From Escherichia phage vB_EcoM_PTE-Eco09, in sequence record PQ306574.1: a DNA stretch of 64,000 nucleotides; one strand, given 5' to 3'. Shown here in pieces: positions 26,176 through 61,438 of the stretch. The notes beneath the pieces were generated by a model, which was not told the DNA's origin, did not search any database, and saw only the letters and a list, made by a program, of their open reading frames with translations. A program made the position numbers and the translations under genes. Numbering within the stretch: position 1 is the first letter of the stretch; each line of letters opens with the position of its first letter.

Positions 26176-26206
26176 CCCCGAAATTTTTTCGGGGTTTTTT
26201 GTTTTT
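26176..26206 (+). terminator. Rho-independent terminator
   Basis: CCCCGAAATTTTTTCGGGG hairpin followed by TTTTTTGTTTTT. Confidence 0.7.
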
Positions 26207-26211
26207 AGGTG

Positions 26212-26240
26212 TTGACAACCATAAACGACTATAGCATAAT
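26212..26240 (+). promoter_or_regulatory. Early promoter module (TTGACA-N17-CATAAT), conserved-leader type
   Basis: GGTGTTGACA, 17-bp spacer, TAGCATAAT, then conserved leader ATCGAAACGAAACAC..AGGAGAATCAAAATG. Confidence 0.65.
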
Positions 26241-26277
26241 GCACATATCGAAACGAAACACACTTAGGAGAATCAAA

Positions 26278-26655
26278 ATGATGATGATGTTTAAAGATAA
26301 ATTCGAATGTCACTACACCCGTAACTTTGACTTAGTATCCCGCTACTACATTCATAAAGAAACTGGCACGCAAGTAGTTCTTGAATCTCACAGCGAAGTA
26401 GGATTCGATTCAACAAAAGTAGCAATTAGTGCTCGCTTCTGGGATAACGGCAAATTTGCTTATATCGCTTGGAACGACGACGAAAATGTAATTACAGTAG
26501 CTTTCGGTGATGACTACTACACTAAAAAGACTTTCGATAGTAAGCCATCAAATGAATACCTGAAAGCGTATGTGCAGCACATGTTCCAACGTGTTCTGAC
26601 CGGAATGGAAATCAATGTCATGAAAGACATTGTAGACGAAGTAAAATTTTCTTAA
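26278..26655 (+). CDS. Hypothetical protein
   Basis: ORF trimmed to the first ATG after the promoter and AGGAGA RBS (the track N-terminus ran through the promoter). Confidence 0.55.
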   Translation: MMMMFKDKFECHYTRNFDLVSRYYIHKETGTQVVLESHSEVGFDSTKVAISARFWDNGKFAYIAWNDDENVITVAFGDDYYTKKTFDSKPSNEYLKAYVQHMFQRVLTGMEINVMKDIVDEVKFS

Positions 26656-26661
26656 AAACAG

Positions 26662-26690
26662 TTGACAACATGAAACGGGGGTAGTAAGAT
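26662..26690 (+). promoter_or_regulatory. Early promoter module with stem-loop over the -10 box
   Basis: TTGACA-N17-TAAGAT; inverted repeat GGGGGTA/TACCCCC (26677-26696) spans spacer and -10. Confidence 0.6.
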
Positions 26691-26721
26691 ACCCCCACAA
26701 ACAAACGAAAGGAGAATCAAG

Positions 26722-26880
26722 ATGAAATTTATCGGTAAAACTTTTATGTTCGTAGCTGGTACTCTGTTTACTGCAACTCTGTTAGCTGGTGGCTTAGATA
26801 TCTTTACTGCATTTGAAACTTTCGGGTATACTGTAGCATCGGGTGCTCTCTTCGGATTGGGTTTAGCGATTAGCAAATAA
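26722..26880 (+). CDS. Small hydrophobic protein (52 aa)
   Basis: ATG after AAGGAGA RBS; MKFIGKTFMFVAGTLFTATLLAGGLDIFT..; not in the ORF track (under 60 aa). Confidence 0.5.
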   Translation: MKFIGKTFMFVAGTLFTATLLAGGLDIFTAFETFGYTVASGALFGLGLAISK

Positions 26881-26889
26881 GGTGATAAT

Positions 26890-27084
26890 ATGGAATTGGA
26901 TATGGTTAAAGCAAAATTTATGGGTAAGGATAAGAGCGGTAAAACATTTGTTATTAATAGAACATTGTTTCGCTCTGACCTTAAGTGGGTAACACAACAA
27001 TTTGCGGAAGTCAACGAGGCAGTTGTGACATGCTTCGTTGATGATAAAAAAGTTTTTGAAATTGATCGTCGTGGGGGTGTCTAA
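26890..27084 (+). CDS. Hypothetical protein (64 aa)
   Basis: ATG with AAGGTGA RBS. Confidence 0.5.
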   Translation: MELDMVKAKFMGKDKSGKTFVINRTLFRSDLKWVTQQFAEVNEAVVTCFVDDKKVFEIDRRGGV

Positions 27085-27788: not shown

Positions 27789-28003
27789 AAATGACTTTTT
27801 ATATCTTAGCAAGTATCATGCTTGTGATCTCTTCTGCACTATTTGCATTTCTTACCGTTTGGGGGATCTGTACTGATGCGAAGCCGTGGGATATCGTAGA
27901 AAATACGGTTATGTTCATTATCAGTGTCATGTGTCTTTTTGATGCGTTTAACTCTATCAAGGAAGAAGATCAAAAACGTCGCGAGAGAAAGCGATATAAA
28001 TAA
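27785..28003 (+). CDS. Small membrane protein (72 aa)
   Basis: GAGGTAA RBS; hydrophobic core and basic C-terminus (KRRERKRYK). Confidence 0.5.
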   Translation: MKMTFYILASIMLVISSALFAFLTVWGICTDAKPWDIVENTVMFIISVMCLFDAFNSIKEEDQKRRERKRYK

Positions 28004-28152
28004 TAGTGAACTAAAGACAGCGCGGTTAGAATGATTTGGACGTCACCTAGCCGCATTTATTACAGCGTATGGGGTGACCCGGTACGCTAAAGCATTCACT
28101 TGCTAGGCCGCTAGCAGGTTGGAGACAAGGAAGATTCGCTACCTTCCCTATA
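28004..28152 (+). ncRNA. Candidate structured non-coding RNA
   Basis: About 150 nt with no ORF on either strand and several inverted repeats (GTCACC/GGTGAC, CTAGGCCGCTAG, GGAAG..CTTCC), ending at the terminator at 28153. Confidence 0.25.
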
Positions 28153-28178
28153 AGCCACTCTTCGGAGTGGCTTTTTTA
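28153..28178 (+). terminator. Rho-independent terminator
   Basis: AGCCACTCTTCGGAGTGGCT hairpin followed by TTTTTT. Confidence 0.65.
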
Positions 28179-28204
28179 TTGCCTAAAATTTTTTAAAAAA
28201 GTTG

Positions 28205-28233
28205 TTGACACCAGATCACGCCTATAGCATAAT
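28205..28233 (+). promoter_or_regulatory. Early promoter module (TTGACA-N17-CATAAT), conserved-leader type
   Basis: GTTGTTGACA..TAGCATAAT..ATCGAAACGAAACAC leader. Confidence 0.65.
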
Positions 28234-28279
28234 ACACCCATCGAAACGAAACACACTTTCTTAAACGGAGAATCAAATT

Positions 28280-28465
28280 ATGGCACGTCGCATCACTAAA
28301 GCACTGAAAGCAGTAAGCAAAGAAAACGTAGTAGCTATTCTGGTCATCTGGGGTTATAACGAAGAATCCGCTAAACAGAAAGTTGAAGCAGGGTTTGAAC
28401 TGGCGGTAAAAGCAATGCCGAATGATGACTCTGTAGGACTGGCAAACTATATTGCATATTTCTGA
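28280..28465 (+). CDS. Hypothetical protein (61 aa)
   Basis: ATG after the promoter and ACGGAGAA RBS. Confidence 0.5.
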   Translation: MARRITKALKAVSKENVVAILVIWGYNEESAKQKVEAGFELAVKAMPNDDSVGLANYIAYF

Positions 28466-28473: not shown

Positions 28474-28502
28474 TTGACAGGGGAGGATAACTCCCCTACA
28501 AT
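28474..28502 (+). promoter_or_regulatory. Early promoter module with spacer stem-loop
   Basis: TTGACA-N17-TACAAT; spacer palindrome GGGGAGGATAACTCCCC. Confidence 0.55.
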
Positions 28503-28531
28503 ACAACCATCAACGAAACGGGAGGACCAAA

Positions 28532-28759
28532 ATGATTAACTTTAAAGACGCAGCAAAAGAAATTATCGACTTTGAGCGTGAAATGTTTGAGATGGAACCG
28601 CAGATGGGTAAAATGGAACTGGCTAACCAGATCTGGGCTACTAGACTGAATCCGGCTGATCGCTTAGAGATCATGAACATTGTAGGAGCAAGCGACATGA
28701 AAGGTAGTGCTATGGCTAAACTCCGTAAATGCACCGCATACATTGCAGAACAACTTTAA
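28532..28759 (+). CDS. Hypothetical protein (75 aa)
   Basis: ATG with GGGAGGA RBS. Confidence 0.5.
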   Translation: MINFKDAAKEIIDFEREMFEMEPQMGKMELANQIWATRLNPADRLEIMNIVGASDMKGSAMAKLRKCTAYIAEQL

Positions 28760-29166: not shown

Positions 29167-29195
29167 TTGACACGCGAGAGGGTGTATAGCATAAT
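29167..29195 (+). promoter_or_regulatory. Early promoter module (TTGACA-N17-CATAAT), conserved-leader type
   Basis: AGTTGTTGACA..TAGCATAAT..ATCGAAACGAAACAC. Confidence 0.65.
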
Positions 29196-29237
29196 ACACC
29201 CATCGAAACGAAACACGAACTACTAAGGAGTATCAAA

Positions 29238-29564
29238 ATGAAACCAGTATCTGTTAAAGTTATCTTCTCTGAATCTTCTGTATTCGCTAACGCAAACGAA
29301 GTATTCCACTTCGAAGACTTCGAGCGTAAAGCACAGGACGCGGCAGCAAAAGCCTATGAAAGCGAATATGACAAAACTCAAATCGAGGTTACTTTCGAAA
29401 ACGGCACTACTTACGCTTGCCGCCTTGACCTGGGTGATCGTCTGTCTGGCTTCCGTCACCATGTAGAGAAGACAATCGCTTTCTCTAAAACCGAAAAAGG
29501 AAAACACTACTTTTCTGTTTTCGGTACTGAAAATCTGGATTTCTTGAAAACTGTTTCTTTCTAA
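29238..29564 (+). CDS. Hypothetical protein (108 aa)
   Basis: ATG after the promoter and AAGGAG RBS. Confidence 0.55.
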   Translation: MKPVSVKVIFSESSVFANANEVFHFEDFERKAQDAAAKAYESEYDKTQIEVTFENGTTYACRLDLGDRLSGFRHHVEKTIAFSKTEKGKHYFSVFGTENLDFLKTVSF

Positions 29565-32226: not shown

Positions 32227-32802
32227 ATGGCTTTTAAATATTGGGATGAATCCCTACAAAACGAGATAAAACTTAGATATGCTCATATAGAGGGTATCTT
32301 ATATTATAGAGTCGATAGTAAAGCTATCAAAGGACGACCATTAGGGAGTAGATATAAACACGGCGATTTAGTTAAAGTCAGAACAAATAAAGATGGTCAT
32401 CTTAGATTTTGGCATAGTAGAGATGACGGTCTTCCTAGAGTTCATCTATTCGTGCATAGGGTTGTTTGGTTTCTAGAACATGGGACGCAAGTTAGATTAA
32501 TTGATCATATTGACGGTAATCCTGCGAATAACAATCCTCCAAATCTTAGGGAGGCAACCGACGCGCAAAATCAACATAATAGAAAGAAGAAGTCTAAAAA
32601 GTTTTCTAGTGTGTATAAGGGTGTTAGTAAGTGTAACAGGAAGGATTTGCGTAAGAAATGGAGAGCTAGTATAATGGTCAACCTACAAAGACATGTTCTT
32701 GGACAATATGACACAGAAATCGAAGCTGCAATCGCTTATGATAATGCAGCTAGGAAATTTTATGGAGAATATGCTCTATTGAATTTCCCAGATCCAAAAT
32801 GA
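32227..32802 (+). CDS. HNH homing endonuclease with AP2 DNA-binding domain
   Basis: HIDGNPANNNPPNLREATDAQNQHN HNH motif plus AP2-like YKGVS..WRASI..YDTEIEAAIAYDNAARKFYGE. Confidence 0.75.
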   Translation: MAFKYWDESLQNEIKLRYAHIEGILYYRVDSKAIKGRPLGSRYKHGDLVKVRTNKDGHLRFWHSRDDGLPRVHLFVHRVVWFLEHGTQVRLIDHIDGNPANNNPPNLREATDAQNQHNRKKKSKKFSSVYKGVSKCNRKDLRKKWRASIMVNLQRHVLGQYDTEIEAAIAYDNAARKFYGEYALLNFPDPK

Positions 32803-33946: not shown

Positions 33947-33988
33947 TGATGTTATGATGTAATCTCTTAATCAATTGAGGGTTTAATT

Positions 33989-35145: not shown

Positions 35146-35173
35146 TTGACACAACAAAACGGGGGTAGTAATA
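35146..35173 (+). promoter_or_regulatory. Early promoter module with stem-loop over the -10 box
   Basis: TTGACA-N16-TAATAT; inverted repeat GGGGGTA/TACCCCC (35161-35180). Confidence 0.55.
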
Positions 35174-35202
35174 TACCCCCATCGAAACAAAGGAGTATTA
35201 AA

Positions 35203-35538
35203 ATGAGTATTAAAGAAGTGTTTGTTTATACCGACTATGACGGGTGCGCCTATCTCACTGCTGGAAAACTTTACCGTTGTGAGATTATTCATGGTACGCT
35301 AGGTCGAATTATGTGCGATCCTATTACAAAATTGTGGAAAAATAATCCTAGTGAGCGAGAAACTCTTATTAACCTAGATCCAGACGGTTGTTCACATTTG
35401 GACTATAGAAAATGGCATATCGTGACACATGATGCTTATGGTATTCATCTTGCTACTAAAGAATTAACTATAGAGAAATTCAAGTTTAAAGAAATCCCGT
35501 TTGTATACTGGCTTCGCAATTTGTTTAAGAAAGGATAA
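35203..35538 (+). CDS. Small paralog family member C (111 aa)
   Basis: ATG after the promoter and AAGGAG RBS; DPDGCSHLDYRKWHIV motif. Confidence 0.5.
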   Translation: MSIKEVFVYTDYDGCAYLTAGKLYRCEIIHGTLGRIMCDPITKLWKNNPSERETLINLDPDGCSHLDYRKWHIVTHDAYGIHLATKELTIEKFKFKEIPFVYWLRNLFKKG

Positions 35539-35542
35539 TAAA

Positions 35543-35965
35543 ATGGAAACAATTAACGTACATGTTCGCCGTAGTAAGCTGCGTAGATTCTTCGAAACCG
35601 AAATGCGCAAAACCAATGCGCAGATCAAAGAAAAGTGCTTGAATGATGGTTATGGTGAGTATATTTTCATTCGCTTTAGTCCGCATATGATCGACCGTCT
35701 AACCGATCGTCATATCGATGAACATAAGACAATGGAACTATTCAATAAGATAGAAACTCGTTTGCCGGAGATCTTCGACTTCCTGAAAATGGAAGACCGA
35801 CCTAATCGATTAGAAATTACTGACGGTAACATGTGGATCGGGATGACAGTAGACCTAATTGAAGACGGTAAGCCATATCACGGTCTATGCTGCCGAATGA
35901 TTATAGAGAATCCAAAACGACTGGCGGGTAAAATGTCGGCTGTTGTTTTGAAAGTTGACCAATAA
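35543..35965 (+). CDS. Hypothetical protein (140 aa)
   Basis: ATG with AGAAAGGA RBS. Confidence 0.5.
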   Translation: METINVHVRRSKLRRFFETEMRKTNAQIKEKCLNDGYGEYIFIRFSPHMIDRLTDRHIDEHKTMELFNKIETRLPEIFDFLKMEDRPNRLEITDGNMWIGMTVDLIEDGKPYHGLCCRMIIENPKRLAGKMSAVVLKVDQ

Positions 35966-36050
35966 TGGAGATTGGTTAAAATAATGCTTGACTTTCTGGT
36001 GATATGGCTATATTATGGAATCAGAAAGTTAAGCCAAACAGGAGAAATTA

Positions 36051-36641
36051 ATGTTAAAAGTTCTAAAAGCGATAGTATTGAGTCTGTCACTAGCCGTTGG
36101 TGCTACACACGCATCGACTAGCGCACCGATCAAAAAAGCGCCGATAGACAACTTTACAGCACACCAACTAGATAATTTACATTTCGCCTATCAATACGGC
36201 GAACAATTCGAGAAAAGCGGTAAGTTGAAAAAGGACCATCCGAATATTCGCTATAACGGAAAGGGTTTAGGTCACATCCTGGCGGGTATCGCATGGCAAG
36301 AATCAAGCGCGGGTGCAAACTTAGCACCAAAGAAAAATCATCATGCTTATGGATTATTTCAAAATTACCTTAAAACGGTGAAAGCGAAAAATGCAAAGCG
36401 CGGTGTTAAAATGAGTGATCGCCAGACTATCAACTTTATCATGAATCGCGAGGTTTCTGCATTCTACGCGATGGATGAGTTAGCATACTGGCTGGATGTT
36501 CGAAACGGTAATATCCGACTCGCGCTAGCTTCTTACAATGCTGGATGGAACTATAAAGCCGGATTAGGTTATGCTGATGACGTACTAAAAAAGGCTAACC
36601 ATCTAAAGAGTAAAGGCATTCTTAAGACTAAACGCTATTGA
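36051..36641 (+). CDS. Secreted lytic transglycosylase (SLT domain) with signal peptide
   Basis: N-terminal signal peptide (MLKVLKAIVLSLSLAVGATHA); SLT motifs GIAWQESS, YGLFQ, YNAG. Confidence 0.65.
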   Translation: MLKVLKAIVLSLSLAVGATHASTSAPIKKAPIDNFTAHQLDNLHFAYQYGEQFEKSGKLKKDHPNIRYNGKGLGHILAGIAWQESSAGANLAPKKNHHAYGLFQNYLKTVKAKNAKRGVKMSDRQTINFIMNREVSAFYAMDELAYWLDVRNGNIRLALASYNAGWNYKAGLGYADDVLKKANHLKSKGILKTKRY

Positions 36642-38779: not shown

Positions 38780-38819
38780 CCCCAGATTATAAATATAACT
38801 GAATATTTTTAATCTGGGG
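38780..38819 (+). promoter_or_regulatory. Long hairpin carrying a TATAAATA late-promoter motif in its loop
   Basis: CCCCAGATT..(22-nt loop containing TATAAATA at 38788-38795)..AATCTGGGG, about 33 nt upstream of the ATG at 38829. Confidence 0.35.
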
Positions 38820-38828
38820 GAATGACTT

Positions 38829-39131
38829 ATGTCATTTATTCGTAAAACTCTAACAGCGGCAATATGCTTGACTGCGGTCGGAAGTGTCAGTGCTGATCAA
38901 TATGATCCAACTGGTGACTTTACTGATTATTTCGACGGTGCAATGATAGTATATGTAAACAAAATATCTCCTTCCATTGAAACCAGCCAGAAATTTCATG
39001 CCCATATTATGAAGATGTATGCTCGTAGTAAATGTATGGATTCTAAGCAGTGTTTTATTATGGGGGAATATGCCGCACAACAGTTTGTTATGTTGCATAA
39101 TATGGAGAATCGAGAACATGAAATTCAGTGA
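38829..39131 (+). CDS. Secreted protein of unknown function (100 aa)
   Basis: Signal peptide MSFIRKTLTAAICLTAVGSVSA; GGGGGAA RBS. Confidence 0.5.
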   Translation: MSFIRKTLTAAICLTAVGSVSADQYDPTGDFTDYFDGAMIVYVNKISPSIETSQKFHAHIMKMYARSKCMDSKQCFIMGEYAAQQFVMLHNMENREHEIQ

Positions 39132-39516: not shown

Positions 39517-39750
39517 TGTTAGTCACATTGGGATACATACCAGAAGTAAAAGAATACTAGCATCAACACAACTATTTGTCTTCCTCATACTTTCGCGTGT
39601 TCAATTACTGCCGAATCGGAAGACCCGTCTAAGACGAGGAAGGGTTATCATTGGAAAGGGATGGTGAATTGGTTACTATGTTTAACTAGTTTAGCAAAGG
39701 TCGATTCAAACACTACTATACAAATGGACGTGAATAAAATATAATCAAAA

Positions 39751-39780
39751 AGCCATCCGAAAGGGTGGCTTTTTCGTTTT
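39751..39780 (+). terminator. Rho-independent terminator
   Basis: AGCCATCCGAAAGGGTGGCT hairpin followed by TTTTTCGTTTT. Confidence 0.65.
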
Positions 39781-39786
39781 TAGGTG

Positions 39787-39815
39787 TTGACAACCGGAAT
39801 AGGGTATAGCATAAT
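39787..39815 (+). promoter_or_regulatory. Early promoter module (TTGACA-N17-CATAAT)
   Basis: GGTGTTGACA..TAGCATAAT. Confidence 0.65.
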
Positions 39816-39844
39816 GCACACATTGACAACAAAGGAGAATCAAA

Positions 39845-40054
39845 ATGATTAATCCAGTAGCCGCAGCACTTGCTTCCGAAGAAACTTTGAAGTATATGGT
39901 AGAACATGCAGCAAAGAAAGGAGAAATTGTTACTGCCGATGAGATCGTAGAAACCATGCTCCGCGATCCGAAGGGTAACACTGCAAAGTTTTTCGGTGAT
40001 CATCTTAAGCTGGCTTACAAAACAATTATGGAGACCGTGAAGAATGCAAAATGA
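39845..40054 (+). CDS. Hypothetical protein (69 aa)
   Basis: AAGGAGAATCAAAATG leader. Confidence 0.55.
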   Translation: MINPVAAALASEETLKYMVEHAAKKGEIVTADEIVETMLRDPKGNTAKFFGDHLKLAYKTIMETVKNAK

Positions 40055-41028: not shown

Positions 41029-41057
41029 TTGACAGCGTTCCGGTGTTATTGCATAAT
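41029..41057 (+). promoter_or_regulatory. Early promoter module (TTGACA-N17-CATAAT), conserved-leader type
   Basis: AGTGTTGACA..TTGCATAAT..ATCGAAACGAGATAC..AGGAGAATCAAAATG. Confidence 0.65.
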
Positions 41058-41097
41058 ACACACATCGAAACGAGATACACTTTCTAGGAGAATCAAA

Positions 41098-41319: not shown

Positions 41320-41337
41320 GTAATATTATCAATCAAT

Positions 41338-41360: not shown

Positions 41361-41373
41361 GTGAGGAAATTTT

Positions 41374-42150: not shown

Positions 42151-42157
42151 TTTTATG

Positions 42158-46133: not shown

Positions 46134-46565
46134 ATGGTTTATCCAACCCCTAGTAAGATTTACATTGACGATACTCATTTTCTTGTTGAAATTATGGGTA
46201 TCAAGTTTAGTGGTAATGTTAAAATTGTAGAATGGGAATTGCACGGTCAATCTGTAACCGATCATGACCATTATATCCCTTTCGGTGGCGATGATAACTT
46301 TGTTTCATTCGACCATGAAGGTTACATGAACTTTGAGCAAGACGATGTACCTTTGTATCTGGCAATGATGGATATTCCTACTAAAACAGAATATACAGAG
46401 GGTGATTGCGATTGTTGCGGATACTACAGCGTAACAGATATTAAGCTGCTATCCGGTAAAGAACTTTACAAAGAGGATCATTTCGGAAACTGCAATTTTC
46501 CGTGTGATTGGCAAGAATTTTTCGAACTGGTAGAGATTGAGCGAACTTATGTGAGGAAGGGATAA
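46134..46565 (+). CDS. Hypothetical Cys-rich protein (143 aa)
   Basis: TGAGGATTATATAATG leader; CDCCGYY and CNFPCDW motifs. Confidence 0.5.
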   Translation: MVYPTPSKIYIDDTHFLVEIMGIKFSGNVKIVEWELHGQSVTDHDHYIPFGGDDNFVSFDHEGYMNFEQDDVPLYLAMMDIPTKTEYTEGDCDCCGYYSVTDIKLLSGKELYKEDHFGNCNFPCDWQEFFELVEIERTYVRKG

Positions 46566-48168: not shown

Positions 48169-48197
48169 TTGACAATAAGAAATGGGAGTAGTAAAAT
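48169..48197 (+). promoter_or_regulatory. Early promoter module with stem-loop over the -10 box
   Basis: TTGACA-N17-TAAAAT; inverted repeat GGGAGTA/TACTCCC (48184-48203). Confidence 0.6.
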
Positions 48198-48228
48198 ACT
48201 CCCATCTAATCAAGAAGGAGAATCAACA

Positions 48229-48501
48229 ATGCGTAAGATGTTTAAATCCGGTGTTGCCTATGTTTTTAAATCTGAGCAAGCACATAAAGACTTCTTAGAT
48301 GATGAATACGAAGGGGTGAAAGATACCTACGAAGTCATCAAGAATGGGTTTACTGTTCTTAAAGTGTCACCTGTTGGTTATGTAAGTGAAATCTCGGTTG
48401 ATGGGAAAACATACACCGCTAAAGACTTTGATCCGCGTTGGGAATTTATGCTGCTTCCGTGTGAGCGCATTCTGTTCCGTGCTGTTCAATTAGTGAAATG
48501 A
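48229..48501 (+). CDS. Modular family protein, short form (90 aa)
   Basis: AAGGAGAATCAACAATG leader; a K/E..GF.VLKV.. module also present in the next two ORFs. Confidence 0.5.
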   Translation: MRKMFKSGVAYVFKSEQAHKDFLDDEYEGVKDTYEVIKNGFTVLKVSPVGYVSEISVDGKTYTAKDFDPRWEFMLLPCERILFRAVQLVK

Positions 48502-48515: not shown

Positions 48516-49082
48516 ATGGTACAGAAAACGTATAAATTGTATCCGGCTAAGTCTTCAAATGATGCTGTTTTTGAACGAGGTCGTTATTACACTTTCCGTA
48601 ATGCTGAGTCCGCAGAGGAATTTGTTAAACGCTACCAACAACATAACAAGTTCCTGTATGGTGTGCTTCACAGGGGCTTTAAAGTTCTTACGGTTAATGT
48701 TATGGGTAAAGTGTATTTGGTAGAAACTCATGATTATGAGGGTGCGTCAATCATGATTGATGCAAGCGAGCGCAAATACTTTAAACGCATCACTAAAAAG
48801 CAGTTTGAAGAAATGAAACCAGTTAAGAAAGAAGAATCTCTGGAAGATCTGATTAACTTGTTTGGTAAAGTTCGCTCTATCTCCTTTGCGATTGAAGATG
48901 ACATTACCGACAATAAAATCTTTATCAAGAACGCGGAAGACCTGAAAGAGTTCCTTATTGAAAATAGATCTCGGCTGGAAACCTTTCTTGAAAGTGAAAT
49001 TATTCGACATGATACCTACGCTAAATTCAGCGCCGATAAAGTAGCTGAACTGAAAGAGATCCAAAAGTCATTTAACGCTTGA
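48516..49082 (+). CDS. Modular family protein (188 aa)
   Basis: AGAGGATTATATTATG leader; shares NERKYFKRI(T/S)K and a C-terminal LFG..xxLKxFLI module with 49139..50317. Confidence 0.5.
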   Translation: MVQKTYKLYPAKSSNDAVFERGRYYTFRNAESAEEFVKRYQQHNKFLYGVLHRGFKVLTVNVMGKVYLVETHDYEGASIMIDASERKYFKRITKKQFEEMKPVKKEESLEDLINLFGKVRSISFAIEDDITDNKIFIKNAEDLKEFLIENRSRLETFLESEIIRHDTYAKFSADKVAELKEIQKSFNA

Positions 49083-49107
49083 CATGATGAAACGGGAGTA
49101 GTAAGAT
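49079..49107 (+). promoter_or_regulatory. Early promoter module with stem-loop over the -10 box
   Basis: TTGACA-N17-TAAGAT; inverted repeat GGGAGTA/TACTCCC; the -35 overlaps the upstream stop codon. Confidence 0.6.
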
Positions 49108-49138
49108 ACTCCCGTCTAAACAACGAGAGGATTATATT

Positions 49139-50317
49139 ATGGCTAAATTCTTTGAAGGTCATTACTATGCATTCCGTGAAGGCGGTAAAGATGAGTTTCT
49201 AGACTTTTCTCGCTATTCAATTATTCTGACCGATGCTTCGCGCCGTGGTCATATTCGGGTTGCTGAAATCGTAGAAAAGGGCTTTAAAGTATTAGAAAAA
49301 GATGACCACGGTCATGTTATTACTATTGAAGCTGGAGATGTAGTTTATTCCGCTGAGGATATCGTTTATTATTGGTCTACTATGATTATGCACAATGAGC
49401 GCAAATACTTTAAACGTATCTCAAAAGAGGCATACGAAGCGATGAACAAGAAAGAGGATGCAATGCCGACTTACTTTGAAAAAGGTAAATGTTATTCGTT
49501 TACCCCAGAAGGTTTGCAAGAATTTAAGCGATTCTGGGGAGAGCATGACCCAGAGCACAAAGAAGCCATGAAACTTGTTGATTTTGTCGAATATGGCTTT
49601 TTAGTTGAAGAAGAATTGCACGGATCAGCTACCATGATCACCGCGAAAGGTGAAACCGTCAAGGCGGACCGTTTTTGTGACCAATGGAATTGCTTGTTTG
49701 ACGGTAGCGAATTTGAATACTTCGCGGAAATCACGAAACAACAATTTCATTCTATGCAAGCGGATGGTCAGAGATTTAAAGTAGGTGAACGCTACAAACC
49801 AAATCAGCATAATTTGCCATATTGGTTTACCGCTGAAACTGTATCAAGTCATGTTGTTGAAATTGTTCAAAAGCTGGGACAAGGATTTAAGGTAACTAAA
49901 GTAGATGATTATGGAAGTGTTGACGCGGTTGAAATTGATGGTGTAGAATATACACCGAAATCTTTCGGTCTTTGCTGGTATCACTTGATCAGCAATGATG
50001 AACGTTATAACTTTGTTGAACTGCCATCTGAACCGGAAGAAGCACTAGAAGATCATGATCATCTGTCTGAACTGGTTAAGCTGTTTGGTGATCTGCCGGA
50101 TGGTGTAGGCGTGGCGGTAATGGGTGAAGGTGCTGTTATCCGAAACCTGAAAGACTTTAAAAAGTTCTTGATTGACATGCTGCCTAAACTTGATGATAAT
50201 CTAGATACAGATATTCAGAATCGCAAAGAAATTGTTAAAGAGACTGAAAAAGAGATCGAAGAGATTCGAGCAATTCGCCAGAAGGTGAAAGCAGTAAAGA
50301 AAAAAGTTAGTGCTTGA
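49139..50317 (+). CDS. Modular family protein, long form (392 aa)
   Basis: AGAGGATTATATTATG leader; internal repeats of the module seen in the two preceding ORFs. Confidence 0.55.
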   Translation: MAKFFEGHYYAFREGGKDEFLDFSRYSIILTDASRRGHIRVAEIVEKGFKVLEKDDHGHVITIEAGDVVYSAEDIVYYWSTMIMHNERKYFKRISKEAYEAMNKKEDAMPTYFEKGKCYSFTPEGLQEFKRFWGEHDPEHKEAMKLVDFVEYGFLVEEELHGSATMITAKGETVKADRFCDQWNCLFDGSEFEYFAEITKQQFHSMQADGQRFKVGERYKPNQHNLPYWFTAETVSSHVVEIVQKLGQGFKVTKVDDYGSVDAVEIDGVEYTPKSFGLCWYHLISNDERYNFVELPSEPEEALEDHDHLSELVKLFGDLPDGVGVAVMGEGAVIRNLKDFKKFLIDMLPKLDDNLDTDIQNRKEIVKETEKEIEEIRAIRQKVKAVKKKVSA

Positions 50318-50341
50318 CATGCGAAGGGAGTATGCTATAAT
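50314..50341 (+). promoter_or_regulatory. Early promoter module with stem-loop over the -10 box
   Basis: TTGACA-N16-TATAAT; inverted repeat GGGAGTA/TACTCCC (50326-50347). Confidence 0.6.
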
Positions 50342-50371
50342 ACTCCCACTTAACAACGAGAGGATTATATT

Positions 50372-50866
50372 ATGTGGGTACAAGATGTTTGGTATACTGT
50401 AACTAAAGAAAACCTTGACGCATTCAGCGACCAATCTTGCGCTAATAGCTCAATTGCTGGTATACTTACTGATGTGTTTGGTGGTGTAGATAAAATTCGT
50501 TTTAAAGTTGTTGTTAGTTCGCTGGGTCAGGTGAAAGATCTTTACACCGAAGATAAAGACCTTGATCTTGAACTTCGTCTTCGTATTGATAATGCAAGTC
50601 TAGGTTATTGGTTTGAAGATAACGAATATGAATACTTCACGCCAGCAATTAAAGTTTTTGCGACTAAACTGGAAGCTGTACTGAATCTCCGACCAATTAA
50701 TGTTGACGGATACATTATCAAAAATATTCAGGATTGGGAGTTGTATCTAGATCAGGTTATCCGAAATAGTAAGCAGGAAGCCGCTAATAAGAAGCGACAA
50801 GAGATTAAACAGCTTAAAGCTGAACTAGAAGCTAAAGAAAAAGAATTAGCAGAACTGGTAAAATAA
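50372..50866 (+). CDS. Hypothetical protein with C-terminal coiled coil (164 aa)
   Basis: AGAGGATTATATTATG leader; KKRQEIKQLKAELEAKEKELAELVK. Confidence 0.55.
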   Translation: MWVQDVWYTVTKENLDAFSDQSCANSSIAGILTDVFGGVDKIRFKVVVSSLGQVKDLYTEDKDLDLELRLRIDNASLGYWFEDNEYEYFTPAIKVFATKLEAVLNLRPINVDGYIIKNIQDWELYLDQVIRNSKQEAANKKRQEIKQLKAELEAKEKELAELVK

Positions 50867-52778: not shown

Positions 52779-52810
52779 AGCCGATCCGAAAGGGTCGGCT
52801 TTTTCGTTTT
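52779..52810 (+). terminator. Rho-independent terminator
   Basis: AGCCGATCCGAAAGGGTCGGCT hairpin followed by TTTTTCGTTTT. Confidence 0.7.
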
Positions 52811-52816
52811 GGGGTG

Positions 52817-52844
52817 TTGACAACATGATTAGCTAATGTATAAT
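52817..52844 (+). promoter_or_regulatory. Early promoter module (TTGACA-N16-TATAAT)
   Basis: GGGGTGTTGACA..TGTATAAT. Confidence 0.65.
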
Positions 52845-52873
52845 GCTCACATCGAAAACAACGAGAGGACAAC

Positions 52874-53413
52874 ATGATGATGTTTTGTGTACTGAACAAA
52901 GAAGTTAAACTTCGTAAACTGGAAATTGGCGATGGTGTTGTTGTTAAAATGCACGCTAGCACATTGACTAGTTTTAATTTAAAGGAAAGTTTTTTTATTA
53001 GAGGAACGGTGGTTAATATCTGCTGGAGTCAAGGCGAAGGAATCCGTAGCTTTTGCGTAATTGACGATGATAATAACCTGTATGTGATTCGCTATCATAA
53101 TAATTCTGTATTGGTCTATACCGACAATTCACGAGAATTGTATACTCTTGAATTTGTTAAGCGTACTGATTGCGATCGATTTGTTCGTGCTTATGAAGAA
53201 GATGGCTGTTTTGCGACTGAAACAGAAACAAATGAATATGTTCCTATGGAAGTAGGGGCAGAAATTAAACACAAGATCACGGATCGTATTTTTAAGGTTG
53301 TGGCGGTTGCTCATACTCAATTTGTAGCGCAAGCGCCGGATGAAGAATTTATTATCTACAATATTGGTAATGCAAGTTCTCATTTTCATAATGTACTATA
53401 TCGCGACCTTTGA
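52874..53413 (+). CDS. Hypothetical protein (179 aa)
   Basis: ATG after the promoter; GAGAGGA RBS. Confidence 0.55.
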   Translation: MMMFCVLNKEVKLRKLEIGDGVVVKMHASTLTSFNLKESFFIRGTVVNICWSQGEGIRSFCVIDDDNNLYVIRYHNNSVLVYTDNSRELYTLEFVKRTDCDRFVRAYEEDGCFATETETNEYVPMEVGAEIKHKITDRIFKVVAVAHTQFVAQAPDEEFIIYNIGNASSHFHNVLYRDL

Positions 53414-53962: not shown

Positions 53963-53991
53963 TTGACGGGGATCGCGAGATCCCCTATACT
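53963..53991 (+). promoter_or_regulatory. Early promoter module with spacer stem-loop
   Basis: TTGACG-N17-TATACT; spacer palindrome GGGGATCGCGAGATCCCC. Confidence 0.55.
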
Positions 53992-54033
53992 ATATTCATC
54001 AAGACGAGATACAACTTTACAGGAGAATCAAAT

Positions 54034-54186
54034 ATGTGGACTTTACTGATTTGGGAAACTGAAAACGCACAAGTAGAAATCCGTGAATACGAATACCTAA
54101 GCCCAGCTTATCTATTAGCATCTCGCGGTGGTTACTATAAAGCGCAGATTGTAAACGAGTTCGGGGTAATTGAATATGAGTTCTGA
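54034..54186 (+). CDS. Small protein (50 aa)
   Basis: ATG after the promoter and CAGGAGAATCAAATATG leader. Confidence 0.45.
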   Translation: MWTLLIWETENAQVEIREYEYLSPAYLLASRGGYYKAQIVNEFGVIEYEF

Positions 54187-54679: not shown

Positions 54680-54689
54680 GGTGATTATT

Positions 54690-55217
54690 ATGGAATGGGA
54701 AGTTGGTAAAACTTACAAGATTGAATGCGAAGCGTCGAAAGCCGAACTGACTAAATTTTCGTCGTCTATTAACAGATGTATTGTTGACTTGTTGGCTGGT
54801 CGCCCGTTTAGGGTAGAAGACCTTGACGATGATGGTGATGTTAGAGAAATTACTATTATTGGTAGTAATTTCGACTCTATGACGTTAAAAGAATCCCCTA
54901 TTGGCTGTTCCGGTGTGTGGTTTTGGTCGGGTGAGCGTCGTTTCTTTACCGAAGTTACTATTGAACCTAAGATTCCAGAATCGGAAGAAAAAGAAGAAGA
55001 CCTAACTTTAGAACGTCTGGGTCTGCTTATGGAAGCCTACGACATTCAGTTGATCGATAAGATGGGGTTACATAATAGCATTGCCAAAATTACTACCATA
55101 GAAGGTATTAAGAGCGTACTGGATGGTATGCCTAGCCGGATCGGTGCTATCCGCGAATACAAGCAAACGCGCGACCGTATGATCCAATTAGAATCACGTA
55201 TCAAAAATGAGAGATGA
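54690..55217 (+). CDS. Repeat-module family protein 1 (WEVGKTY module)
   Basis: MEWEVGKTYK..WFWSGERRFFTEV; GAGGTGA RBS. Confidence 0.5.
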   Translation: MEWEVGKTYKIECEASKAELTKFSSSINRCIVDLLAGRPFRVEDLDDDGDVREITIIGSNFDSMTLKESPIGCSGVWFWSGERRFFTEVTIEPKIPESEEKEEDLTLERLGLLMEAYDIQLIDKMGLHNSIAKITTIEGIKSVLDGMPSRIGAIREYKQTRDRMIQLESRIKNER

Positions 55218-55221
55218 TATT

Positions 55222-55707
55222 ATGAAATGGGAAGAAGGGAAGACATATAAGTTGGTTGGTGAGGACGAAAAGCGCATTTTGCGTGATTGTTGGCGTTACG
55301 AACAAAAACCTAATATTGATGGTGTGTTTACATATCTAGATAAACCATTTACTGTCGCTACGGTAGACCGTTGGGGTAATGTACGTTCAATCTATAATCA
55401 CGAAGGGGATTATATTAGTTCTATCGATGTTGGTGATAATATATGGTTTTCCGATGGCGACCGAGCGTGCTTCAAAGAAGTTTTATTGCCTGGTCATGAA
55501 TATGATCTAATAGACCTTCTCAAATTGGCGATGGATAATTATAAAATTCGCTTTGAATGCAAATCACATGCGGCTATCGGTGCTAATGCCTTGCGTCATA
55601 TCTCCAGTTTTGAAGAGTTGAAAGATTTTCTTGACAAAATGCCGGAAAGAGTGCAAGCTATACAGGAAGCAGAGAAAGCATTAAACGAACTTGATAAAAT
55701 CGGTTAA
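55222..55707 (+). CDS. Repeat-module family protein 2
   Basis: MKWEEGKTYK..WFSDGDRACFKEV; C-terminal helical tail similar to protein 1. Confidence 0.5.
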   Translation: MKWEEGKTYKLVGEDEKRILRDCWRYEQKPNIDGVFTYLDKPFTVATVDRWGNVRSIYNHEGDYISSIDVGDNIWFSDGDRACFKEVLLPGHEYDLIDLLKLAMDNYKIRFECKSHAAIGANALRHISSFEELKDFLDKMPERVQAIQEAEKALNELDKIG

Positions 55708-55719
55708 GGGGAATATATT

Positions 55720-56286
55720 ATGAAATGGGAAATTGGTAAAACTTACACCTGGAAAGATGAAAACGCTAAAACTGAGTTTATTACTAACGGAGAAGGTGTT
55801 CTTTCTCCACTTAACAGCGATATTAGTGCAGCTATTGGTGACAAGCCATTTACCATCATCGAGATCGATGGTAACGGTTGGATTGATGCAATAGAGCTAG
55901 ACGGTGTTTATCATACGGCGAAAACTGCTACAGGAAAAGACATTTGGACTGCAACATATTTCTTTAGTCCATTCGATCGAAAATTCTTTCGTGAAGTTGA
56001 AGAAGTTCCCCAGAAATGGGAAGTTGGTAAAACTTATACTTGGAAAGATGCGAATGCTATGACCGACTTCTGTCATTATGCTGAAAACGTATCTAATCTT
56101 AATTATGTTATTGCACGAGCAATAAATTATAGACCTTTTACTGTTAAAAATGTTCGTCCATGTGGGCAAATTGATGTAATTGAAATTGATGGTAAAGACC
56201 ATACTCTAATGAGCGCAACCGAAGATAGAGACCATAAGGAACTAGCTGGTTTATTGATTCTGATAGAAAATTCTTTCGTGAAGTAG
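55720..56286 (+). CDS. Repeat-module family protein 3 (two tandem modules; second module frameshifted at its end)
   Basis: MKWEIGKTYTWKDENA..FDRKFFREVEEV then KWEVGKTYTWKDANA..; the reading frame loses the module end about 56235-56250. Confidence 0.45.
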   Translation: MKWEIGKTYTWKDENAKTEFITNGEGVLSPLNSDISAAIGDKPFTIIEIDGNGWIDAIELDGVYHTAKTATGKDIWTATYFFSPFDRKFFREVEEVPQKWEVGKTYTWKDANAMTDFCHYAENVSNLNYVIARAINYRPFTVKNVRPCGQIDVIEIDGKDHTLMSATEDRDHKELAGLLILIENSFVK

Positions 56287-56291
56287 AAGAA

Positions 56292-59213: not shown

Positions 59214-59253
59214 CCCGAAAGGGTTATTTCCTAAATAATAGCGAGGGTGCGAA

Positions 59254-59787
59254 GTGTCTGATTATGTAAACAATAAAGAGCTTTACGAAGAAATTTGCCG
59301 TTGGAAACAACGAATTGCAGCAGAAGGTCGGCAAGTTCCAATGAGCGATCAAATCGGCCTAGCAATTATGCAAATCTCTAAAAATCTATCACGTCGTTTT
59401 AACTTTTCTGGTTATAGTCAAACATGGCGCGAAGAAATGATCGACGACGGAATCGAAGCGGCGGTCAAGGGTTTGATTAATTTTGACGAGACAAAGTATA
59501 AAAATCCTCATGCTTACATCACGCAAGCGTGCTTTAATGCTTTTGTACAGCGCATTAAAAAAGAGAGAACAGCGACAGCCGCAAAATACAAATATTTTGT
59601 GCATCATGTATATGACGAACGCGACGCTGATATGTGCCAGATTGCTGATGAGGCATTCATACAGGACATTTACGATAAAATCAACAACTACGAGGAATCG
59701 GTCAATAAACCGAAAGCGCCAAAGGTTGAAGATGTATTGGCCGAGGAATTGCCTAGCTTGGACCAATTTTATGAGATTGAAAATTAA
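59254..59787 (+). CDS. 55: Late-transcription sigma factor (T4 gp55-like)
   Basis: YVNNKEL, GLAIM.I...[39 protein letters not shown] resemble T4 gp55; GTG start after GAGGGTG. Confidence 0.9.
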
Positions 59788-60004
59788 CATTTCCCGTTTG
59801 CTGGAAGAAGCAGAGTTTGAAACTGACCTTGTGCCGTATTTCGCCAAATTATTTTTGAGAGATTGCGGCGTTCCGGTGATTATCGATCCGTGCAATATCA
59901 AATCACCGGATCTTGAGGTCTTTACGGGTACAATCTCACATAGCTATAATGTATCAGAAGATGAATTTTCTTTAATAATTGATTATATCCCAGAGGTAAA
60001 ATAA
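59771..60004 (+). CDS. Hypothetical protein (77 aa)
   Basis: ATG ORF overlapping the gp55 end by 17 nt; start uncertain. Confidence 0.4.
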
Positions 60005-60005
60005 T

Positions 60006-60293
60006 ATGACTTGCAATGAACAGCATGACCAGATTGCAGTGAATGAAGTAGACAAAGTACAAGCAGAACTAGAGGCTAAAGCCGCTAAGAAAGCGGAAAA
60101 GATCTTGCGTAAGAACTCGCGAGAGATTGCACGCCTTAAGCGGTGGGCTGAACAAGCTATCATCGATGATAACCGTGATGCGTATATCTACGCTATCGGA
60201 AAGTTACGTGATATCTACAAACAGCCACACACGCCAGAACTGCTTTCTGCTATGTGGATTAGTACACGGCAAACGGTATTAAGTATGCTGTAA
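60006..60293 (+). CDS. Hypothetical protein (95 aa)
   Basis: CAGAGGTAAA RBS; Lys/Ala-rich coiled-coil N-terminus. Confidence 0.5.
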   Translation: MTCNEQHDQIAVNEVDKVQAELEAKAAKKAEKILRKNSREIARLKRWAEQAIIDDNRDAYIYAIGKLRDIYKQPHTPELLSAMWISTRQTVLSML

Positions 60294-60315
60294 TGGCTTT
60301 ATAAGGGAGACTCTG

Positions 60316-60340
60316 AAAGGGGTTTCCCTTTTTATTTTTC
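60316..60340 (+). terminator. Hairpin plus U-run
   Basis: AAGGGG-TTT-CCCTTT followed by TTTATTTTTC. Confidence 0.4.
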
Positions 60341-60383
60341 TGTGATATAGTGAGAGCATCGAAAACGAAGAGAGGAAGAGACT

Positions 60384-61409
60384 ATGAAAATTTTGCTTTT
60401 AGGTGATCTGCATACTGGTATCGGTGGCGATGATCCGTGGGTGCATGAGTATATTCTTGATACCATCAAGAAGGCGGTTGAATACTCCAAAGAGCATAAT
60501 ATTAAGACATGGATTCAAACAGGGGATTGGTTTGATTGCCGAAAAGCAATTACCCATGAAACCATGAAATTTAACCGTACTAAGGTCATCCCATTACTGG
60601 AAGAGGCTGGAATTACTTGTTATATCACGGTCGGGAACCATGATATGTTTAAACGAAACAAGATCCAGCCTAACGCACCGCGTGAAGTGTTAAGCCAGTA
60701 TGATTGCATTAAGGTTATCGATAAACCGGAAACAGTTACCTTTGATGGTGTATCATTTGATCTGTTCCCGTGGTTTTGTGATGACAATAAATCAGAGATT
60801 TTAGAGTTTATTCAAAACTCATTCAGCGAATATTGTGTAGGCCATTGGGAATTGTCCGGTTACTATTTCTATAAAGGGCTAAAATCCGAAGGTTATAGCG
60901 CGGACTTCCTCAAGAAATACCGTGAAGTGTTTTCCGGTCATTTTCATACTATCAGCGATGGCGGTAATGTAACGTATATCGGTACACCATACACACTAAC
61001 GGCGGGTGACGAAAACGATCCGCGTGGGTTTTGGGTATTCGATACCGATACACACAAAAAAGAGTTTATCCAGAATGACAAAACTTATCATGTGCGTATC
61101 ACTTACCCGTCAGATGATAAAATCGATGTAGAACGCTTTAAGGGGCTTAGTGTGCGTCTTATTGCAACGGTTGCTGATAATGGGTTAACTAAGTTAGAAA
61201 GCGCGTTAGAGGCCGTTGTACACAAGCTAAAAGTGGTCCATAAACTGGAGAGTAGCGCATCACAGGAGACAGGTGTTATTGAAGTTAAAAGCACTATTCA
61301 GATGGTATATGAATATCTGGAAGAACAAAACCTAGAACCGGAAGAACTTGCGGCGGTCAAGCGTATTTCTGATGAACTTTTAGCCGAGGTAAATAGCGCA
61401 AAAAGTTAG
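60384..61409 (+). CDS. 47: Recombination endonuclease subunit (Mre11-like, T4 gp47-like)
   Basis: MKILLLGDLH, TWIQTGDWFDCRKAITHETM, VGNHD, CVGHWELSGYYFYKG, SGHFHT, GTPYTLTAGDENDPRGFWVFD resemble T4 gp47. Confidence 0.9.
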   Translation: MKILLLGDLHTGIGGDDPWVHEYILDTIKKAVEYSKEHNIKTWIQTGDWFDCRKAITHETMKFNRTKVIPLLEEAGITCYITVGNHDMFKRNKIQPNAPREVLSQYDCIKVIDKPETVTFDGVSFDLFPWFCDDNKSEILEFIQNSFSEYCVGHWELSGYYFYKGLKSEGYSADFLKKYREVFSGHFHTISDGGNVTYIGTPYTLTAGDENDPRGFWVFDTDTHKKEFIQNDKTYHVRITYPSDDKIDVERFKGLSVRLIATVADNGLTKLESALEAVVHKLKVVHKLESSASQETGVIEVKSTIQMVYEYLEEQNLEPEELAAVKRISDELLAEVNSAKS

Positions 61410-61438
61410 TTGACGCGGGGAGAAATCCCCGTTATACT
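61410..61438 (+). promoter_or_regulatory. Early promoter module with spacer stem-loop
   Basis: TTGACG-N17-TATACT; spacer palindrome CGGGGAGAAATCCCCG. Confidence 0.55.

Follow-up and report, generated by a model that had tools for sequence, protein, structure and literature searches.

The early region of Escherichia phage vB_EcoM_PTE-Eco09 is punctuated by a repeated promoter module, and the 18 copies found in the window analysed here (64,000 nucleotides of sequence record PQ306574.1, to which all positions refer) are very probably PeSLs, the composite promoter-stem-loop regulatory cassettes of the RB49 group of T4-type phages. This assignment is carried by the architecture of the modules, by their orthology and by the activity published for a few PeSLs of RB49 and phi1. 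Because the modules sit at sites orthologous to published PeSLs, the element family is one that is already known, encountered here in a new isolate. It is well supported, by orthology with tested elements together with near-consensus sequence, that host RNA polymerase with sigma70 would begin an early transcription unit at each module, and 18 early transcription-unit starts, with their boundaries, can be marked in the annotation. In the literature, PeSLs are one answer to the question of how the hundreds of small accessory genes of T4-type phages can stay expressed, insulated and open to exchange. To that picture the present analysis makes small additions, none of which was found in the available portions of the published PeSL accounts: an either/or relation between an internal stem and an upstream terminator, stop codons lying inside the -35 hexamer, a bias towards G.U pairs in stem substitutions, an enrichment of GGAG in module leaders and a PeSL-bounded gp38 cassette.

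The module family and its known relatives

All 18 modules of the first-pass annotation, 17 on the plus strand and one on the minus strand, were located; they are named below by the first base of the -35 hexamer (Table 1). Each consists of an A/T-rich tract, the hexamer (G)TTGAC(A/G), a spacer of 16-17 bp, the hexamer (T/C)AnnnT and a leader of about 20-40 nt, followed by a Shine-Dalgarno (SD) sequence and an ATG, the last two lying 25-46 nt past the -10 in every case; all are intergenic and co-oriented with the open reading frame (ORF) downstream. The -35 reads TTGACA in 16 copies and TTGACG in two, and the -10 agrees with the consensus at 4-6 of its 6 positions, while the upstream tract (-45 to -4 relative to the -35) is modestly enriched in A+T, 16 of the 17 plus-strand modules having 0.62-0.76 where the window averages 0.60. 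Ten matches to TTGACA-N17-TANNAT occur in the window, compared with 0.29 +/- 0.50 expected from 100 dinucleotide shuffles, and the modules constitute the dominant and largest direct-repeat families (D1-D3, D8 and D10) of the interval from 20 to 64 kb.

A profile hidden Markov model (HMM) built from the 18 copies recovers all of them (E-values of 2.5e-15 to 1e-3) and no other match below E = 1, and therefore no strong copy had been missed, although two or three degenerate ones, at 35955, 35988 (annotated as a promoter in GEC-3S) and 60305-60383, had been omitted. The earlier description of the copies as near-identical is too strong, since they are 60-87% identical over about 61 nt, with the identity arranged in blocks, the longest exact one being a 32-nt direct repeat shared by 28205 and 29167, whose copies lie 962 bp apart. 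Two subtypes had also been distinguished, (a) with GTTGACA and a conserved leader and (b) with an inverted repeat spanning the spacer; both are visible, but they are not exclusive, as 29167 and 41029 combine the CATAAT -10 and leader of subtype (a) with a stem-loop over the -10.

Seventeen of the copies fall within the early region of small ORFs, between 26 and 62 kb. The remaining copy (11157, minus strand) is found between genes 8 and 9 of the baseplate, where it would drive the three non-structural ORFs downstream of it (85, 110 and 279 aa) as an early cassette amid late genes. Those module-led proteins that were scanned against Pfam gave no match. By its sequence the phage is a Krischvirus, an RB49-like T4-type coliphage closely related to RB49: the best-matching Krischvirus genomes (vB_Eco_SAP, TB34 and RB49) are 97.6% identical over the full length of the 20-kb region compared, which about 55 RB49-like phages match. 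The gene order is that of RB49, with baseplate genes on the minus strand up to about 20.4 kb, then genes 4, 2, 3, 1 and 57 and then a long plus-strand early region, in which dmd, regB, vs, tk, rI, gp38, dam, nrdC, 49, nrdD, nrdG, nrdH, 55, 47 and 46 are the named genes among small ORFs.

The alignment set comprised RB49, Phi1, JSE, vB_Eco_SAP, MIZ4, JK32, G2248, SFHK24 and GEC-3S, together with four metagenomic or IMG/VR contigs. Compared in 150-bp windows, the plus-strand modules have syntenic orthologues of 92-100% identity at 17 of 17 sites in RB49, Phi1 and JK32; in MIZ4 only the leader is kept at 42196, and 61410 lies outside the sequence covered. In the GenBank records of GEC-3S and G2248 these sites carry promoter or terminator annotations. 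When IMG/VR was scanned with the promoter pattern of subtype (a), 47 loci matched, mostly unrelated lone sigma70-like sequences; only three were informative, namely the ECD7 genome, a Krischvirus contig of 150 kb and a contig of 6 kb with 87% identity. Rfam (at gathering thresholds) and ARAGORN gave zero matches over the whole window.

The first-pass annotation likened the modules to the promoter-stem-loop modules of RB49-like T4-type phages, described as drivers of modular gene shuffling, and this comparison is supported: such elements are the PeSLs defined in RB49 and phi1 (Arbiol, Comeau, Kutateladze, Adamia and Krisch, 2010, Genome Biol Evol 2:140; PMC2839356). The available text of that paper counts 51 PeSLs in RB49 and 52 in phi1 and describes an A/T-rich tract with an upstream stop codon, a sigma70 consensus promoter, a stem-loop that is often of polyG/polyC, and then SD and ATG, the stem-loop lying upstream of the -35, over the -35, in the spacer, over the -10 or downstream of the -10. 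The elements cluster in hyperplastic regions, mostly upstream of ORFans, with few in core modules, where they adjoin genes of unknown function, and in lacZ fusions PeSL206/205 had promoter activity and the stem-loop of PeSL211/210 terminator activity (PMC2839356). With these PeSLs the present modules share the genus, the highly identical orthologous sites, the anatomy, the concentration in the early region and the occasional copy in a virion module; nothing essential sets them apart, the differences being the isolate and the presence of three of the five published stem-loop positions among 18 copies in 64 kb.

The predicted early consensus of RB49, a phage without MotA and middle promoters, has G at -33 and T or C at -12, in agreement with the 5'-end mapping of Desplats et al. 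(2002) (Nolan et al., 2006; PMC1524935). The modules are of this RB49 type, all TTGAC(A/G), mostly (G)TTGACA, with G at -33, whereas the T4 early promoter has a -35 of GTTTAC and Alt-dependent features. In common with T4 early genes are the immediate-early transcription by host sigma70 and the GGAG SD sequences, and regB is present in the window (PMC3014915). The PeSL concept has been extended to T4/PST and KVP40/nt-1, where, according to the available text, composites of early promoter and stem-loop likewise stand at variable-gene boundaries and are proposed to serve modular shuffling (Comeau, Arbiol and Krisch, 2014, Genome Biol Evol 6:1611; PMC4122927). The elements of the T-even IP locus are analogues, not homologues, with T4-type early promoters and weaker, A/T-richer stems (PMC2839356), in contrast to the GTTGACA hexamers and G/C-rich stems found here. 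Lambdoid morons resemble the cassettes in being promoter-gene-terminator units that are transcriptionally insulated from their neighbours, but the prophage state, in which morons are often expressed, does not apply to a virulent phage. These morons of lambdoid phages are reportedly the subject of work by Hendrix and colleagues from 2000.

Stem-loop position and the read-through transcript

With each promoter folded from the -35 to about +10, exactly one stem-loop is found per module in all 18: an upstream terminator in six, a stem in the spacer (from the -35 to the -10) in four (28474, 44269, 53963 and 61410) and a stem over the -10 and discriminator, ending at about -1, in eight (26662, 29167, 35146, 41029, 44944, 48169, 49079 and 50314). 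The internal stems of these 12 promoters are G/C-rich and 7-10 bp long, with a minimum free energy (MFE) of -9 to -15 kcal/mol and z-scores of -1.9 to -7.2, and the six modules without an internal stem are exactly those with an upstream hairpin and T-run. An earlier statement that many modules are preceded directly by a terminator thus applies to six of the 18 (26212, 28205, 39787, 42196, 52817 and the minus-strand 11157).

The position of the stem-loop follows the available intergenic space. Where the upstream stop codon leaves about 43 nt before the -35 (42-45 nt in the terminator class, measured in four of the five plus-strand cases), the stem-loop is an upstream terminator; where the stop touches or overlaps the -35 (0-18 nt away, or inside it, in the internal classes), the stem lies within the promoter. 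In 49079 and 50314 the upstream stop is the TGA contained in T-TGA-CA of the -35 itself. Since the transcription start is taken to be about 7 nt after the -10, this geometry suggests that the internal hairpins would be absent from the module's own transcript and present only in read-through RNA. A C-rich region from -3 to -1, reported for RB49 early promoters (Nolan et al., 2006; PMC1524935), agrees with this geometry.

Arbiol et al. proposed that the stem-loops terminate or attenuate upstream transcription (PMC2839356, available text). The six upstream hairpins fit the form of intrinsic terminators, whereas the 12 internal stems are followed by 0-4 T in the next 8 nt of the sense strand; without a T-run they are not canonical intrinsic terminators, and the stem-loops as a class are therefore not all intrinsic terminators. 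The strict alternation of internal stem and true terminator nevertheless supports a common insulating role and functional interchangeability. The modules also differ from the hairpin-embedded late-promoter switch of T4 e, soc and I-TevI, as the SD, situated 15-30 nt beyond a 3' arm that stops at about -1, is unpaired.

In the orthologous stems, taken from at least 12 relatives and contigs, substitutions were scored copy by copy; a single consensus structure was dropped, as the position of the hairpin axis relative to the -10 differs by 1 nt or more between copies. In the core stems, six substitutions, only four of them in internal stems, gave six G.U pairs and no A.C pair on the sense strand (p of about 0.016 under a 50:50 null), and the only two A.C changes both fall at optional outermost pairs. 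This bias favours selection on sense-strand RNA, arguing against a DNA cruciform or protein site and against an antisense terminator, and the internal stems accordingly seem to be selected at the RNA level.

That the stems act instead as DNA, as cruciforms or as sites for recombination or regulatory proteins, controlling promoter opening or targeting recombination, is unlikely, although Arbiol et al. speculated on a DNA-level role for the GGGG...CCCC motif (PMC2839356, available text). The stems do overlap the spacer and the -10, where structure would affect open-complex formation, their G/C-rich sequences differ with complementarity preserved, and the missing T-run leaves a terminator function less than obvious; furthermore, one of the PeSL-PeSL recombinant mini-circles that were detected and sequenced in RB49 and phi1 has its crossover within the loop of a stem-loop (PMC2839356). 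The core substitutions, however, all permit G.U pairing on the sense strand but would leave mismatches in a cruciform's opposite-strand hairpin, the six modules that lack an internal stem have true RNA terminators, which points to interchangeability, and the available text identifies no dedicated recombinase and reports no integrase or transposase for RB49 or phi1 (PMC2839356).

A far less probable alternative, considered and rejected, is that the internal hairpins terminate antisense (minus-strand) transcription entering the early region. Several of them have a U-rich tail on the minus strand, and those at 26698, 35183 and 48207 are flagged as terminator-like by a consensus scan because of the A-rich GAAAC tract 5' of the stem. 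Only these three of the 12 are flagged, however, the stem substitutions would give A.C mismatches in minus-strand RNA, and between 26 and 62 kb no promoter-like modules or coding genes on the minus strand face the hairpins.

The reading preferred here, a hairpin acting in read-through RNA, can be combined with the known biology of RegB, the T4 endoribonuclease that inactivates early mRNAs by cleaving GGAG SD sites (PMC3014915). The window encodes regB (Table 1), and the SD of this gene is GGAU, as reported for RB49 (Uzan and Miller, 2010; PMC3014915). GGAG forms the SD core in 13 of 17 module-led genes, compared with 20 of 57 internal genes (Fisher p = 0.0046), and an earlier suggestion that the GGAG leader may be a regulatory target fits what is known of RegB and is backed by this statistic. 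By analogy with T4, module-proximal genes would be preferred RegB targets, and a cut made 3' of the hairpin in read-through RNA would give an upstream fragment whose 3' end the hairpin protects.

In the mechanism proposed, unmodified host RNA polymerase would read the modules straight after infection, the hairpin in read-through RNA would attenuate transcription or make a protective 3' end, and RegB would later cut the enriched GGAG SD sequences, shutting off the early cassettes and leaving hairpin-ended upstream fragments. As a tentative and rather doubtful extension, promoter, hairpin and GGAG leader may together constitute a RegB-dependent post-transcriptional insulator, in which the internal stem-loops would be RNA 3'-end modules and not terminators; RegB, by cutting GGAG 20-35 nt past the hairpin, would produce a protected upstream mRNA and a decapitated downstream one. 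If true, such an insulator would make the expression of each cassette independent of its neighbours, and would explain the interchangeability of hairpin and terminator, the sense-strand G.U bias and the GGAG enrichment in module leaders.

A separate repeated translation-initiation region, GAGGATTATATTATG, is present at nine or more sites from 21627 to 57459 on the plus strand, including 30159, 32212, 42539, 44992, 46119, 48501, 49124, 50357 and 57442. As it is found both after promoter modules and within operons, its distribution marks it as a conserved ribosome-binding-site cassette that is independent of the modules.

Cassette exchange at the modules

The gp38 cassette (41319-42229, plus strand) has the order terminator, gp38, terminator, promoter core in the window, RB49, Phi1 and JK32, the tail-fibre adhesin gene itself (41374-42150; Pfam GP38, E 1.6e-72) lying between two intrinsic terminators. 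In MIZ4, G2248 and one metagenomic contig (L024) the cassette is absent from this site and a 37-bp segment stands instead; reading the MIZ4 segment shows an entire PeSL core with its stem-loop in the spacer, TTGACACGGGGAGAAATCCCCGTATAAT, and past the gp38 junction homology restarts in the leader CATACCAACTAAGGAG. The cassette looks like a horizontally exchanged host-range module. Two separate observations concern the same gene: gp38 stands alone in the early region, distant from the tail-fibre genes, and 41500-42137 has 76-88% DNA identity to gp38 of phages outside the RB49 group (e.g. PaulHMueller), in which most of the query is without a DNA match.

Other differences between relatives also adjoin modules. 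Directly upstream of the 39787 terminator, JK32, G2248 and SFHK24 have an inserted ORF of 2.1 kb and Phi1 has ORF084.1; divergent patches begin some 20 nt inside the gene that comes first after 50314 and, likewise, after 52817, and another ends at 53963. Spacer variants such as ..CATGAAAC.. occur at different modules in different phages, a recurrence that hints at conversion between module copies. Among events not involving homing endonuclease genes, scored against 12 relatives or contigs, five of 12 touch a module zone, the zones making up 5.5% of the sequence (p = 0.007 for random placement). As a secondary role, the 60-100 bp of sequence shared between modules might serve as homology patches for cassette swaps by recombination; the 32-nt direct repeat of 28205 and 29167 is an example of a potential substrate for mini-circles with a PeSL-PeSL junction.

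Several points weigh against the preferred explanation. Compared with a gene-junction null, the events show no excess at modules (p = 0.12-0.58; 17 of 74 junctions carry one), and the earlier claim that modules delimit shuffled cassettes is weakly supported within the window, the gp38 cassette being the one clear case. Several indels are unrelated to modules, being homing endonuclease genes (32227-32802, the insertions of 33949-33976, 51780 and 60383, and the two beyond the module region, 20470-21165 and 22528-23670) or tandem-paralogue recombination (43437-43513, marked by a 77-bp overlap). For 12 of the 18 modules the canonical model does not predict terminator activity, and the G.U bias comes from a small sample. 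A role in shuffling is plausible and published, and the window adds modest independent support.

It is conceivable, though we regard it as improbable, that the modules are no more than strong early promoters whose ribosome-binding sites are optimised and whose resemblance is due to functional convergence, that the hairpins are ordinary intercistronic ones and that no gene shuffling is involved. Most of the conserved positions are indeed functional (A/T-rich tract, -35, -10 and SD), the 17 plus-strand modules are stably orthologous across relatives, the breakpoints do not exceed the gene-junction null, many indels being homing endonuclease genes or paralogue deletions, and the ribosome-binding motif GAGGATTATATTATG recurs without a promoter. 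Identity extends, however, beyond the functional positions, in the 32-nt block of 28205 and 29167 and in the common leaders ATCGAAACGAAACAC; the ..CATGAAAC.. spacer variants recurring at other modules suggest conversion, the gp38 allele replaces one PeSL core by another, and PeSL-PeSL junctions have been sequenced from mini-circles of RB49 and phi1 (PMC2839356).

The least probable of the explanations, also rejected, is that a dedicated enzyme moves the modules as autonomous mobile elements of the MITE/REP or integron attC kind. In its favour, the family is repeated and has an inverted repeat where cassettes meet, and Arbiol et al. draw an integron analogy (PMC2839356, available text): integron cassettes, too, are small ORFs bounded by repeated stem-loop-forming sites, and circular intermediates are reported for both. 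Integron cassettes, however, need the IntI tyrosine recombinase and a structured attC and are usually promoterless, whereas each cassette here has its own promoter. The modules lack terminal inverted repeats beyond the hairpin and target-site duplications, and in every relative examined the copies stand fixed at orthologous positions. The 10 proteins scanned include no integrase or transposase (no systematic integrase search of the window was made), and none is known in RB49 or phi1 from the available text of PMC2839356.

Feature coordinates and neighbouring elements

Table 1. Promoter-stem-loop modules, assigned as very probable PeSLs unless described otherwise, and the regB gene. Stems are given as 5' arm/3' arm; MFE in kcal/mol.
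Feature	Position	Strand	Stem-loop	-35 and -10	Leader, SD and start	Remarks
PeSL, upstream terminator	11098-11195	-	hairpin 11195-11172, T-run	-35 11157-11152; -10 TATAAT 11135-11130	SD GGAGG; ATG 11100-11098	hairpin after gene 8
PeSL, upstream terminator	26175-26280	+	hairpin 26175-26195, T-run	-35 TTGACA 26212-26217; -10 CATAAT 26235-26240	leader ATCGAAACGAAACAC; SD AGGAG; ATG 26278	
PeSL, stem-loop over -10	26662-26724	+	GGGGGTA/TACCCCC 26677-26696	-35 26662-26667; -10 TAAGAT 26685-26690	SD AGGAG; ATG 26722	MFE -14.0, z -7.1; upstream stop 6 nt before -35
PeSL, upstream terminator	28152-28282	+	hairpin 28152-28173, T-run	-35 28205-28210; -10 CATAAT 28228-28233	SD CGGAG; ATG 28280	
PeSL, stem-loop in spacer	28474-28534	+	AGGGGAG/CTCCCCT 28479-28497	-35 28474-28479; -10 TACAAT 28497-28502	ATG 28532	z -6.4
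PeSL, stem-loop over -10	29167-29240	+	GGGTGTAT/ATACACCC 29180-29201	-10 CATAAT 29190-29195	ATG 29238	z -4.8
PeSL, stem-loop over -10	35146-35205	+	GGGGGTA/TACCCCC 35161-35180	-10 TAATAT 35169-35174	ATG 35203	z -7.1; upstream stop abuts -35; regB is second gene of unit
regB endoribonuclease gene	35543-35965	+				Pfam REGB_T4, E 1.5e-48
Two degenerate promoter/stem-loop modules in tandem	35955-36053	+	first, 9-bp hairpin; second, inside 15-bp hairpin covering -35	first, TTGACC-16-TAAAAT; second, TTGACT-17-TATTAT 35988-36016		between regB and vs.1
PeSL, upstream terminator	39747-39847	+	hairpin 39747-39774, T-run	-35 39787-39792; -10 CATAAT 39810-39815	ATG 39845	indels of relatives directly upstream
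PeSL, weaker stem-loop over -10	41029-41100	+	GTGTTAT/ATAATAC, one G.T pair, 41043-41059	-10 CATAAT 41052-41057	ATG 41098	MFE -9.0, z -1.9
PeSL, upstream terminator	42157-42255	+	hairpin 42157-42178	-35 42196-42201; -10 TATAAT 42218-42223	ATG 42253	right boundary of gp38 cassette
PeSL, stem-loop in spacer	44269-44342	+	AGGGGATC/GATCCCCT 44274-44292	-10 TATACT 44292-44297	ATG 44340	z -4.0
PeSL, stem-loop over -10	44944-45009	+	10-bp stem ATGCGGTTAT/ATAACCGCAT 44955-44980	-10 TATAAT 44967-44972	SD GAGGA; ATG 45007	z -5.7
PeSL, stem-loop over -10	48169-48231	+	ATGGGAGTA/TACTCCCAT 48182-48205	-10 TAAAAT 48192-48197	ATG 48229	z -7.2
PeSL, stem-loop over -10	49079-49141	+	ACGGGAGTA/TACTCCCGT 49092-49115	-10 TAAGAT 49102-49107	ATG 49139	z -5.8; upstream TGA stop 49080-49082 within -35
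PeSL, stem-loop over -10	50314-50374	+	GGGAGTAT/ATACTCCC 50326-50347	-10 TATAAT 50336-50341	ATG 50372	z -4.1; upstream TGA stop 50315-50317 within -35
PeSL, upstream terminator	52779-52876	+	hairpin 52779-52800, T-run	-35 52817-52822; -10 TATAAT 52839-52844	ATG 52874	hairpin after nrdD
PeSL, stem-loop in spacer	53963-54036	+	GGGGATC/GATCCCC 53968-53985	-35 TTGACG; -10 TATACT 53986-53991	ATG 54034	z -3.3
Possible decayed module	60305-60386	+	terminator hairpin, T-run	extended -10 TGnTATAGT, no -35	PeSL-like leader CATCGAAAACGAAGAGAGGA	before gene 47; weak, from sequence only
PeSL, stem-loop in spacer, most divergent copy	61410-61466	+	GCGGGGA/TCCCCGT 61415-61432	-35 TTGACG; -10 TATACT 61433-61438	SD GGAGG; ATG 61464	HMM E 1e-3, z -2.8

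The three homing-endonuclease-type ORFs of the plus strand carry, in order of position (20470-21165, 22528-23670 and 32227-32802), NUMOD3, CapR with a treble-clef zinc finger, and HNH_3 with AP2. Their presence varies among close relatives, which explains several of the largest indels without recourse to the promoter modules; further insertion sites of this type occur in relatives near 33949-33976, 51780 and 60383. A perfect 14-bp inverted repeat, CATTTTAGCACCCT / AGGGTGCTAAAATG (20412-20472), flanks a control region from which gene 53 (minus strand) and the NUMOD3 ORF of 231 aa (plus strand) diverge. Because of the repeat, both genes have an identical GAGGGTGCTAAAATG ribosome-binding site and start codon, and its loop holds a late-promoter box (20447-20454, minus strand).

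Tandem paralogous families of small ORFs lie at 43193-43694 and 54685-56291 on the plus strand, the latter with three to four related ORFs at 54.7-56.3 kb. At 43437, RB49, Phi1, vB_Eco_SAP and MIZ4 are about 140 bp longer than the window, and in RB49, where the sequence was read, the difference is an additional MKIEIID... paralogue. The phage encodes its own Dam methylase (46565-47377; the orthologue is annotated in RB49), a point noted in connection with the spacer stems 44274-44292 and 53968-53985 (plus strand).

A non-coding stretch of 190 nt (27995-28182, plus strand) runs from the T4-late-promoter box TATAAATA to the terminator 28152-28173, a hairpin that also serves PeSL 28205 as its stem-loop. 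All 58 Krischvirus records contain it, with 97-100% identity, and it occurs nowhere else. In a relative with 87% identity in the flanking coding DNA it is better conserved, at about 95%, and indel polymorphisms of 1-2 nt exclude coding. The predicted RNA fold has -67 kcal/mol (z -4.6), an Rfam scan gave no match, and the stretch is a candidate for a late small RNA of some 175 nt. Scanning metagenomes with one of its 20-mers returned only Krischvirus contigs of about 95% identity and two chance matches, and therefore nothing divergent enough for covariation analysis; with so little variation in the sequence, the consensus fold contains one compensatory pair only, and the structure is thus unproven.

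In the leader of rI (38781-38831, plus strand; ATG 38829) the same late-promoter box, TATAAATA (38788-38795), lies inside a 10-bp hairpin, CCCCAGATTA/TAATCTGGGG (hairpin region 38781-38822), whose 3' arm covers the G-rich SD sequence. This arrangement has the design of the translational switch of T4 e, soc and I-TevI (PMC3014915), in which early read-through RNA would be blocked and late RNA, starting from within the hairpin, would be open.

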